Position numbers and translations under genes: made by a program. The notes under the pieces were generated by a model that saw nothing but the letters and a program-made list of their open reading frames with translations, made no database searches and was not told where the DNA came from. From assembly GCA_043814095.1 (NCBI GenBank), contig JBDRKI010000036.1, positions 1 to 64,000 of the forward strand: a stretch of DNA of 64,000 nucleotides, written 5' to 3'. The stretch is from Armatimonadota bacterium (lineage in GTDB: Bacteria > Vulcanimicrobiota > JACPDS01 > JBDRKI01). Numbering within the stretch: the first letter of the stretch is position 1; the number at the start of each line of letters is the position of its first letter. Shown here piece by piece: positions 7,940 through 9,142 of this stretch.

Positions 7940-9142
7940 ATGAAAAAAATAGCGGAAGGCAAAACCAAAATTATTTTCCAGAACGGTTCAAAAGACGAAG
8001 TTATAATTTTAAGCAAGGATAAAATAACCGCTGGAGACGGCGCTAAAGTTAATGTCATAAAAGACAAGGGTGTATACGCGAACAAGACAACCTGCAACTG
8101 CTATACATTATTAAATATGTGCGGTATAAAGACCCATTTTATCTCGGGGATAAGCGATGACAGCTTCAAGGCGTTAAAGTGCGATATGATACCTCTTGAA
8201 GTTGTTGTAAGGAGAATCGCTTTCGGTTCATATCTTAAGAGAAACCCGGGAGTGAAAGAAGGGTATGTTTTTGGGGATCTTTTACAGGAATTTTTCTTGA
8301 AAGACGACGCAAGACACGACCCCATAATGACATATGATGAGATTATAGAGGCAAAATTAAAAGCCGGTAAAAGAATCATAAAGGCTTCAGATCTTGAATT
8401 TATGATAAAAGAAGCGAAAAAGATATTTAAGATACTTGAAAGAGCGTGGCTTCTCAGAGATGTAACTCTTGTTGACCTGAAAGCGGAGTTCGGCATAACG
8501 GAACACGGGGAACTCGTGCTTGCAGATGTTATAGATAATGACAGCTGGAGAATATGGCCGGGCGGGAAACTTACCGAGATGAAAGATAAGCAGGTTTACC
8601 GCAATCTTTCAAAAGTCACGAAAGAGTCTCTTTCAAAGATTGCCGATAATTACAGGTGGGTGGCAGATACAACGGACGACTTCTGCAGAAAGACTGCCCC
8701 GCACGCCGTTATATTTATGGGTTCAGAGAAAGATAAATCACACGCAGATGAGATAATAAAAGTCCTTAAGGGTTTCGGCATCGGTTTTGATGTAAATATT
8801 CTTTCCGCGCACAAGAATACGGAGAAGCTTTTGAATATGCTTAAATATTATAACCACAGCTATCCTTACGCGGTATTTATAGCTGTCGCGGGAAGGTCAA
8901 ACGCTTTAGGTCCTGTTCTTGACGGGAATACGCTTTATCCGGTTATAAACTGTCCTCCGCCGGGAAGTGCGTTCGGGGGGATGGATATACTTTCTTCCCT
9001 GAGGCTGCCTTCAAATATGGCATGCACTACAATACTTGAGCCGGGAAATGCGGCTCTTGCGGCAGTGAAAATTCTGGCACAGACAAATCTCCCTTTATGG
9101 GCAAAACTTAACCTTCATTGTGACGGAATAAAAGGAGAATAA
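7940..9142 (+). CDS. purC: bifunctional SAICAR synthetase / class II AIR carboxylase (PurC-PurE fusion, PAICS-like)
   Basis: N-terminal PurC motifs EGKTK, [20 protein letters not shown]; C-terminal PurE motifs [27 protein letters not shown]. Confidence 0.93.
   Translation: [400 protein letters not shown]

Follow-up and report, generated by a model that had tools for sequence, protein, structure and literature searches.

The window analysed here, i.e. the whole stretch of 64,000 nucleotides (64 kb) from contig JBDRKI010000036.1 of an Armatimonadota bacterium, contains a purine biosynthesis operon on the forward strand, with the gene order purH-purCE-purM-purS-purQ (Table 1). Its second gene, purCE, is the subject of this report. 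As stated in the initial annotation of this DNA, which was made from the letters alone, purCE is one open reading frame (ORF) in which PurC is followed by PurE; both the ORF list and the Pfam assignments give this arrangement, with PurC as the N-terminal and PurE as the C-terminal domain of a single polypeptide. The ATG start is backed by the strong Shine-Dalgarno core upstream of it. The ATG of purM overlaps the stop codon of purCE (TAATG), an AAGGAG sequence lies inside the end of purCE, and the operon is translationally coupled. The GC content of the gene (0.416), its GC content at third codon positions (GC3, 0.424) and its codon-usage correlation (r = 0.856) all lie inside the range of 16 other genes in the window. 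purCE is a native housekeeping gene of ordinary composition in this operon.

Table 1. Positions in the window of purCE, its domains and motifs, and the other purine genes (aa, amino acids; nt, nucleotides; AIR, 5-aminoimidazole ribonucleotide; SAICAR, succinylaminoimidazole carboxamide ribonucleotide).
Feature	Position	Strand	Remarks
purH	6336..7889	+	NCBIfam NF002049, 597 bits (cut-off 402); upstream gene of the operon
Shine-Dalgarno core GGAGG	7930..7934	+	5 nt before the purCE ATG, read from the sequence
purCE (fused PurC-PurE)	7940..9142	+	single ORF, 400 aa, ATG start; predicted bifunctional PAICS-type enzyme (SAICAR synthetase and class II PurE)
SAICAR synthetase (PurC) domain	7946..8629	+	residues 3-230; Pfam PF01259 SAICAR_synt, E = 3.4e-57
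ATP P-loop of the PurC domain, G7-K8-T9-K10	7958..7969	+	within residues 3-230
C-terminal helix of PAICS-type PurC and connector to PurE	8630..8707	+	helix 228-249 in the model; connector of about 5 residues
Class II PurE (AIR carboxylase) domain	8708..9112	+	residues 257-391; Pfam PF00731 AIRC, E = 1.1e-34
S289-A290-H291-K292	8804..8815	+	catalytic His and class II Lys (class I, SAHR); from alignments
G318-R319-S320-N321-A322-L323	8891..8908	+	class II active-site loop (class I, G-(G/L)-A-A-H-L); from alignments
purM	9142..10134	+	TIGR00878, 253.8 bits (cut-off 236.35)
purS	10131..10397	+	overlaps purM by 4 nt
purQ	10394..11101	+	overlaps purS by 4 nt
Hairpin, 11 pairs	11917..11942	.	between the convergent purQ-side and purN-side units
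guaB-guaA-purD-purF-purN string	11946..18275	-	convergent; Pfam/NCBIfam
purL	27615..29963	-	NF002290, 944 bits (cut-off 648); separated from the cluster by a phoB/phoR-pst-phoU region

The protein resembles animal PAICS over its full length. A phmmer search of the PDB sequences returned 50 distinct sequences at E ≤ 0.001, of which the best was Bombyx mori PAICS (4ja0, E = 5.5e-112, query residues 3-391 onto residues 15-403) and the second human PAICS (2h31, E = 2.3e-103, query residues 2-391), both alignments running unbroken through the region between the domains. The stand-alone enzymes gave far weaker matches (best PurC, 5.5e-30; best PurE, 8.9e-29). Two segments that the initial annotation had given as close to vertebrate PAICS are both present in the translation, and the resemblance to PAICS is borne out by these alignments. 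An AlphaFold2 monomer model built from 15 sequences (predicted local distance difference test, pLDDT, 84.3; predicted template modelling score 0.84) was superposed on human PAICS 6yb8_A with a template modelling (TM) score of 0.83 over 392 columns and on 4ja0 with a TM score of 0.82. The superposition covers the full length, and the relative placement of the two domains therefore matches as well.

The order PurC, then class II PurE, is common to the window protein and the animal enzymes (human 2h31/6yb8/7ale; Bombyx 4ja0), and named animal PAICS are 47-52% identical to it. The catalytic His, SAHK, the GRSN-x-L pattern and the SAICAR-site residues are kept in both. When the residues listed for the SAICAR site of human PAICS in PMC9376930 were mapped through the phmmer alignment, G16, K17, T18, K19, T40, A41, G42, E97, V99, F129, K131, D133, D137, K191, K228 and R232 were found to be identical in the window protein, the sole mismatch being N43, which is D33 in the window. 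The two differ a little in length (400 aa, compared with 425 aa for PAICS), the window protein lacking about 10 N-terminal and about 10-20 C-terminal residues, and also in setting, the window fusion being part of a bacterial operon whose genes overlap.

The likeness to PAICS had been claimed in the initial annotation to include the interdomain linker. The alignments do span this region, but the linker is not a product of the fusion. In phmmer searches of related loci, separate PurC ORFs of Chloroflexota and DPANN archaea align to residues 3-250 of the window protein, and since these stand-alone proteins reach residue 250, the conserved stretch (…KDKQVYRNL…NY-WVA, helix 228-249) is the C-terminal helix of a PurC subfamily. 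The PurC domain did not reach the NCBIfam equivalog of canonical bacterial purC (TIGR00081; 115.5 bits, cut-off 189.9), and on its sequence it is assigned to the PAICS-type PurC subfamily, which occurs as a stand-alone protein in Roseiflexaceae and Oscillochloris.

The PurE half searched alone matched the class II PurE of Treponema denticola (3rg8) at E = 1e-29, whereas the best class I match was Coxiella PurE (3trh, E = 9.7e-17) and E. coli PurE gave E = 1.6e-9. According to PMC9376930, the T. denticola enzyme is an AIR carboxylase of class II from a prokaryote, for which a turnover number (kcat) has been measured. It is a stand-alone protein of 159 aa (3rg8/3rgg), unlike the window PurE, which is fused to PurC; it aligns to residues 254-380 and matches the window model with a root-mean-square deviation of 2.0 and 40% identity. 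The motifs SAHK, AGRSNAL and CPPP are identical in the window and T. denticola proteins and shared with PAICS (2h31, 4ja0), in which the loop reads GRSN-x-L. The same columns in class I enzymes read SAHR, AAGLAAHL and GVPM (3trh) or SAHR, AGGAAHL and GVPV (E. coli), in agreement with the initial annotation, where GRSNAL had been reported in place of the class I GxAAHL. The Arg-to-Lys difference between the classes after the catalytic His is noted in PMC10484210. H291 of the window protein aligns with human H303, named as the general base in PMC9376930. Of the 18 residues listed there for the human AIR carboxylase site, 15 are identical in the window protein; T275, S276 and G334 of human PAICS are replaced by E263, K264 and A322, the last of which is Ala in T. 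denticola as well. The class I purE equivalog TIGR01162 was not reached (113.6 bits, cut-off 149.6). The PurE tree agrees with the scores: a branch of length 2.44 leads to E. coli class I PurE, which attaches outside the other 73 rows. Judged by sequence, the PurE half thus carries the class II (AIR carboxylase, EC 4.1.1.21) signature.

purCE very probably encodes a bifunctional PAICS-type enzyme, in which the class II PurE domain would make carboxyaminoimidazole ribonucleotide (CAIR) from AIR and CO2 without PurK and the PurC domain would then make SAICAR. AIR would be supplied by the neighbouring PurM. The PurE domain would add CO2 to C4 of AIR, and H291 would serve as the base, as H303 does in the human enzyme (PMC9376930), so that CAIR would be formed without ATP, PurK or the N5-carboxyaminoimidazole ribonucleotide (N5-CAIR) intermediate. 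CAIR would move to the PurC domain of the same assembly, which would carry out an ATP-dependent phosphorylation and condensation with aspartate to yield SAICAR. Channelling between the two domains may be envisaged, and the two activities, the independence from PurK and a PAICS/PurE-like octamer are all predicted by analogy with the characterized enzymes. The same overall conversion of AIR to SAICAR is achieved in E. coli by PurK, class I PurE and PurC, i.e. by three proteins with an extra ATP and the N5-CAIR intermediate, whereas the window has one fused protein. The PurE and PurC folds are homologous between the two routes, with 26 and 32% identity, respectively, to the window halves, and PurK has no counterpart in the window.

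Among the 49 window ORFs scanned with Pfam and NCBIfam (15 + 34), no purK, purB, purA, second purC or second purE was found. A tblastn search with E. coli K-12 PurK likewise gave no match at E ≤ 0.01 in the window or in 80 related loci (1,255,195 bases), and E. coli PurE and PurC matched the window only within purCE (8684-9031 and 7940-8665, respectively). The statement that no purK lies among the pur genes is thus confirmed for the 64-kb window only. In the flanks of 35 related loci, none of 112 ORFs carried PurK or an ATP-grasp domain of the PurK type, whereas purA, purB and other pur genes were present. These ORFs, of 300-480 aa, were the 112 of 123 candidates passed through Pfam, the other 11 being mostly antisense overlaps of pur genes and one probable purB of locus L019. 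Since the relatives have near-complete pur operons without purK, these results support the PurK independence of the family.

Several observations weigh against the assignment of a PurK-free bifunctional enzyme. The substitutions T275 to E263 and S276 to K264 touch the AIR phosphate region of human PAICS. The pLDDT of the model falls below 50 solely at residues 318-323, i.e. the class II active-site loop, and at residues 351-360; this probably reflects a PurE site built between subunits, and according to PMC10484210 the PurE site in solved octamers is formed between chains. The PurK probe was a single E. coli sequence, which a very divergent PurK could escape, and the data cover 64 kb of a 115,597-base contig, so that a purK or class I purE may lie elsewhere in the genome. 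The activity of PurCE, as of prokaryotic fusions generally, is predicted from homology.

The loss of PurK has already been proposed to suit high-CO2 anaerobic settings in archaea (PMC3261824; PMC4153887), and the initial annotation linked the window enzyme to a CO2-rich anaerobic niche. This link is unsupported; PAICS-type genes are also found in metagenome-assembled genomes (MAGs) of Eremiobacterota, Xanthobacteraceae and Roseiflexaceae, and at one of these loci (L035) cytochrome bd oxidase is encoded nearby.

The window fusion is one case among many, and the design is common in uncultured bacteria. In a word-indexed search, the nearest relative (P0002) was only 62% identical to the window protein, and the next relatives, at 47-54%, included named animal PAICS (Pocillopora, Nematostella, Branchiostoma and others) mixed with bacterial entries. 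One relative from an Armatimonadetes MAG carries the NCBI name 'AIR carboxylase family protein', and numerous bacterial proteins of this kind are already in public databases, filed under non-specific names. When 1.84 billion representatives were scanned without a profile, 3906 proteins matched at E ≤ 0.001, 327 of them at E ≤ 1e-30. Genomes of bacteria and archaea, one for each species and the genome of the window not among them, were then scanned with an alignment of 15 fusions as the query; this gave at least 598 stretches, of which at least 590 were relatives. The best 80 of these relatives were classified by ORF calling and phmmer. A single fused ORF was present in 57 of them: 35 in Eremiobacterota/Vulcanimicrobiota, eight in Pseudomonadota, two in Verrucomicrobiota, one each in Acidobacteriota, Armatimonadota, Melainabacteria and Patescibacteria, and eight unclassified. 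Adjacent but separate purC and purE genes were found in 16 of the best 80 (14 Chloroflexota and two DPANN archaea), and PAICS-type purC alone in the other seven (Roseiflexaceae and Oscillochloris, among them O. trichoides DG6, which is in culture). Stand-alone PurEs with 50-57% identity to the PurE half were found in Micrarchaeota, Diapherotrites, Bipolaricaulota, Chloroflexota and Gottesmanbacteria. The family is therefore prokaryote-wide, with PAICS-type purC and class II purE either adjacent or fused. The 'animal-type' fusion of the initial annotation is indeed of the PAICS type, has a class II PurE half and lies in a bacterial operon; it is neither exceptional, given the 57 fused loci among the best 80, nor animal-derived, the window lying outside the eukaryote clade described below.

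The gene order of the window recurs in the Armatimonadota locus (purCE-purM-purS-purQ-purL) and in the Melainabacteria locus and L007 (purH-purCE). The fused proteins of Armatimonadota (L001), Melainabacteria (L002), P0002 and P0010/P0011 are 52-62% identical to the window protein and belong with it to one supported clade; part of the window order is shared by the loci of Armatimonadota and Melainabacteria, although the host lineages differ. The order is purCE-purL-purQ in Eremiobacterota and purA-guaB-purL-purQ-purB-purC-purE-purF-purD-purM-purN in Chloroflexota. The split purC and class II purE pairs of Anaerolineae/Chloroflexota and DPANN archaea (e.g. L003, L013, L030 and L032) are 43-54% identical to the window protein and represent the same two subfamilies in the same gene order, adjacent to each other in pur operons without purK. 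They differ from it in consisting of two ORFs 7-52 nt apart and lie across a branch with support of 98/95 from the window.

The Pseudomonadota and Verrucomicrobiota copies have no pur neighbours, except L016, which is labelled Proteobacteria and has an Eremiobacterota-type order. These fusions (L034:5858-7171, L037:424-1740 and L071:9983-11245; also L040, L046, L049, L054, L056, L059 and L061) form a very long branch (100/100), and about 30-45 extra residues are inserted in them between query positions of about 125 and 155. The motifs of L034 also deviate, with SVHK, IGRSNGAG, and VPAS instead of CPP. They may represent paralogues that serve a different function.

In archaea, the step from aminoimidazole carboxamide ribonucleotide to its formylated product (AICAR to FAICAR) is carried out by PurP, a formate-dependent enzyme. 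PurP-type genes (DUF1246 and DUF1297) lie downstream of purCE-purL-purQ in Eremiobacterota (L035:19126-20259 and L042:14567-15841), and L045 has two of them in tandem (14640-15662 and 15666-16808). Other fusions of PAICS-type PurC were also seen among the representatives (P0269, P0278, P0377, P0242, P0243 and P0361), namely PurC-PurF (727 aa), PurD-PurC (733 aa) and orotidine monophosphate decarboxylase-PurC (585 aa), together with Myb/SANT-like DNA-binding domains ahead of a whole PAICS (916-1113 aa), which may be artefacts of eukaryotic gene models.

The groups were congruent between two quick trees, one computed from the PurC part (63 rows) and one from the PurE part (73 rows). A careful tree was then computed with IQ-TREE from both parts (56 rows, 394 columns), in which split pairs were merged row-wise; the fused loci had been dereplicated at 70% identity for the trees, leaving 12 of the 57. 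In this tree, the window groups with P0002 (100/99), then with P0010/P0011 (98/91), and lies in a 14-row clade with the Armatimonadota and Melainabacteria fusions (96/88); P0002, P0004-P0011, P0067 and others are rows without a taxon label, and some of these fused rows could be eukaryotic. A eukaryote clade of 13 named animals, one EukProt transcript and one unnamed row is supported at 100/99 and excludes the window. The 14-row clade, the eukaryotes and P0067 are joined with moderate support (82/80), whereas the split forms of Chloroflexota and DPANN form a group with Eremiobacterota and Patescibacteria (98/95), and the Pseudomonadota/Verrucomicrobiota group is long-branched. A single change between the fused and split states suffices on this tree. 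An approximately unbiased (AU) test did not reject a placement of the eukaryotes with the Chloroflexota/DPANN/Eremiobacterota group (log-likelihood difference 2.25, p = 0.14), and the window clade could not be secured as the sister of eukaryotic PAICS. Of the relevance to the origin of PAICS that had been suggested in the initial annotation, it thus stands that the window clade is among the closest prokaryotic relatives, whereas the sister relation is supported only moderately.

The domain trees were rooted with one E. coli outgroup each, on branches of length 2.44 (PurE) and 6.71 (PurC), and the root positions are indicative only. The root fell among split Chloroflexota forms in the PurE tree and among Eremiobacterota, DPANN and Chloroflexota in the PurC tree, and in both trees the eukaryotes are nested in a starred group (96 and 98) that also includes the window and further bacteria with the fusion. 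These data favour a prokaryotic origin of the PAICS type and probably also of the fusion. The evidence is modest because there is one outgroup for each tree, because the eukaryotes sampled are nearly all animals and because the backbone is unresolved. We tentatively suggest, as a possibility, that the PAICS architecture is a bacterial invention, in which an adjacent purC and class II purE pair was fused in bacteria and eukaryotes took the fused gene from a relative of the window/Armatimonadota/Melainabacteria clade. If so, the PurK-free route of animals to CAIR would be a horizontally acquired bacterial trait.

It is unlikely that the fusion arose instead in early eukaryotes and that one ancient eukaryote-to-bacterium transfer seeded the fused bacterial clade. 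An unrooted tree does not fix the direction of transfer, the branching order inside the group of eukaryotes and fused bacteria is unresolved, and the fused bacteria belong to unrelated phyla, so that transfers between bacteria are needed in any case. However, the E. coli outgroups place the root among split or stand-alone prokaryotic forms, with the eukaryotes nested as described above, and the sampled eukaryotes are monophyletic and not paraphyletic to the bacteria. Separate class II PurE and PAICS-type PurC are, moreover, found in Chloroflexota, DPANN archaea, Bipolaricaulota and bacteria of the candidate phyla radiation, as well as in Archaeoglobus and some methanogens (PMC3261824).

An independent origin of the bacterial and eukaryotic fusions, by convergent joining of adjacent purC and purE genes, would make the shared architecture silent on the origin of PAICS. 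Adjacent pairs are common, as the 16 split loci among the best 80 show, and fusion is one deletion away; in the quick PurE tree, stand-alone PurEs of Bipolaricaulota and Diapherotrites group with the window PurE half (Shimodaira-Hasegawa-like approximate likelihood ratio test, 91), a hint of repeated fusion or fission. Against this stand the single fused/split change that is enough on the careful two-domain tree, the congruent grouping of the PurC and PurE halves, and the junction region, which aligns unbroken between the window protein and animal PAICS. We consider convergence quite improbable.

On another rival reading, the PurE half would work as an N5-CAIR mutase of class I, or as a PurE not assignable to either class, and would need a PurK encoded outside the window, the fusion merely tethering the mutase to PurC. 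Only 64 kb of the genome have been seen, and some archaeal PurEs are not clearly assignable to a class (PMC3261824; PMC4153887). The window PurE, however, has the class II motifs and lacks those of class I, its score against the T. denticola class II enzyme is about 13 orders of magnitude better than against any class I enzyme, TIGR01162 stays below its cut-off, and purK is absent from the window, from the 80 related loci and from the near-complete pur operons of the relatives. Class I membership as such is ruled out by the absent motifs and the weaker class I scores, and a requirement for PurK of this kind is very improbable. Recent acquisition of the gene from an animal or another eukaryote, or eukaryotic contamination introduced during assembly, can practically be dismissed in view of the tree, the structure of the operon and the gene composition. 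Although many of the top database matches at 47-54% are animal PAICS, identity to any animal sequence is at most 52%, and the eukaryote clade (100/99) excludes the window, which has its closest relatives among bacterial or unnamed metagenomic fusions. The gene shares one base with purM and has a bacterial Shine-Dalgarno sequence and neighbour-like GC, GC3 and codon usage, and the orders purH-purCE and purCE-purM-purS-purQ recur in Melainabacteria and Armatimonadota MAGs.

PAICS itself, class II PurE in T. denticola and archaea, and eukaryote-like PurC in some archaea are known. A 2011 survey of archaea described fused PurCE as 'common in eukaryotes' and reported no prokaryotic fusion (PMC3261824). 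Our literature search, with most subscription journals outside its reach, found no published description of a prokaryotic fusion of PurC and class II PurE. Recent papers and reviews (PMC10484210, 2023; bioRxiv 10.1101/2025.07.15.664858; PMC13328217, 2026) still assign PurK with class I PurE to microbes and the PurC-PurE fusion to humans or animals, and use this contrast to argue for selective antibacterials. The broad pattern, i.e. widespread prokaryotic fusions, split precursors and closeness to eukaryotic PAICS, is a more interesting result than the window gene. The window, the 57 fused loci and the 16 split loci indicate a wide distribution of the PurK-free PAICS-type solution among uncultured bacteria and its presence in some archaea, and inhibitors of PurK or class I PurE would miss organisms with this route. 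The closeness of the bacterial fusions to the eukaryotic enzyme makes the origin of PAICS directly testable, and the small bacterial homologues are on offer for structural and channelling studies.

Several other features of the window were recorded. On the forward strand, the sequence around the terminator-like hairpin between the two convergent purine units is T-rich past the stem and A-rich before it. Two ORFs of the forward strand have no Pfam or NCBIfam match: a 157-aa ORF with a GTG start between purQ and the hairpin (11410-11883) and a 319-aa ORF between miaB and hslU (1838-2797), a position at which hslV is usually expected. The purL ORF starts at GTG, and its profile match begins at residue 73, so that translation probably starts downstream of this GTG. 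The pur cluster and purL are separated by a pstS-pstC-pstA-pstB-pstB-phoU operon beside phoB/phoR-like regulators, and its two tandem pstB genes (24891-25649 and 25663-26421) both score above the TIGR00972 cut-off. On the reverse strand, a gene for elongation factor G (fusA, 44748-46817) is adjoined by one for a 654-aa protein (46980-48944) with a caspase-like, EACC1-associated domain (NF047832, below cut-off). The named proteins closest to elongation factor G come from an unclassified 'bacterium' MAG (70%), an Eremiobacterota MAG (65%) and many Spirochaetota MAGs (60-62%). In a KamA-family radical S-adenosylmethionine aminomutase of 608 aa (52308-54134, forward strand), the family match is preceded by an N-terminal stretch of some 190 residues, and the region 54240-56378 gave weak matches to Leptospira lipoprotein families. 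Finally, in a forward-strand cluster at 56627-63999, genes for antiporter-like subunits of the Mrp/Nuo type, of which three are NuoL/M/N-like, precede NuoC- and NuoD-like genes; the cluster runs off the end of the window.

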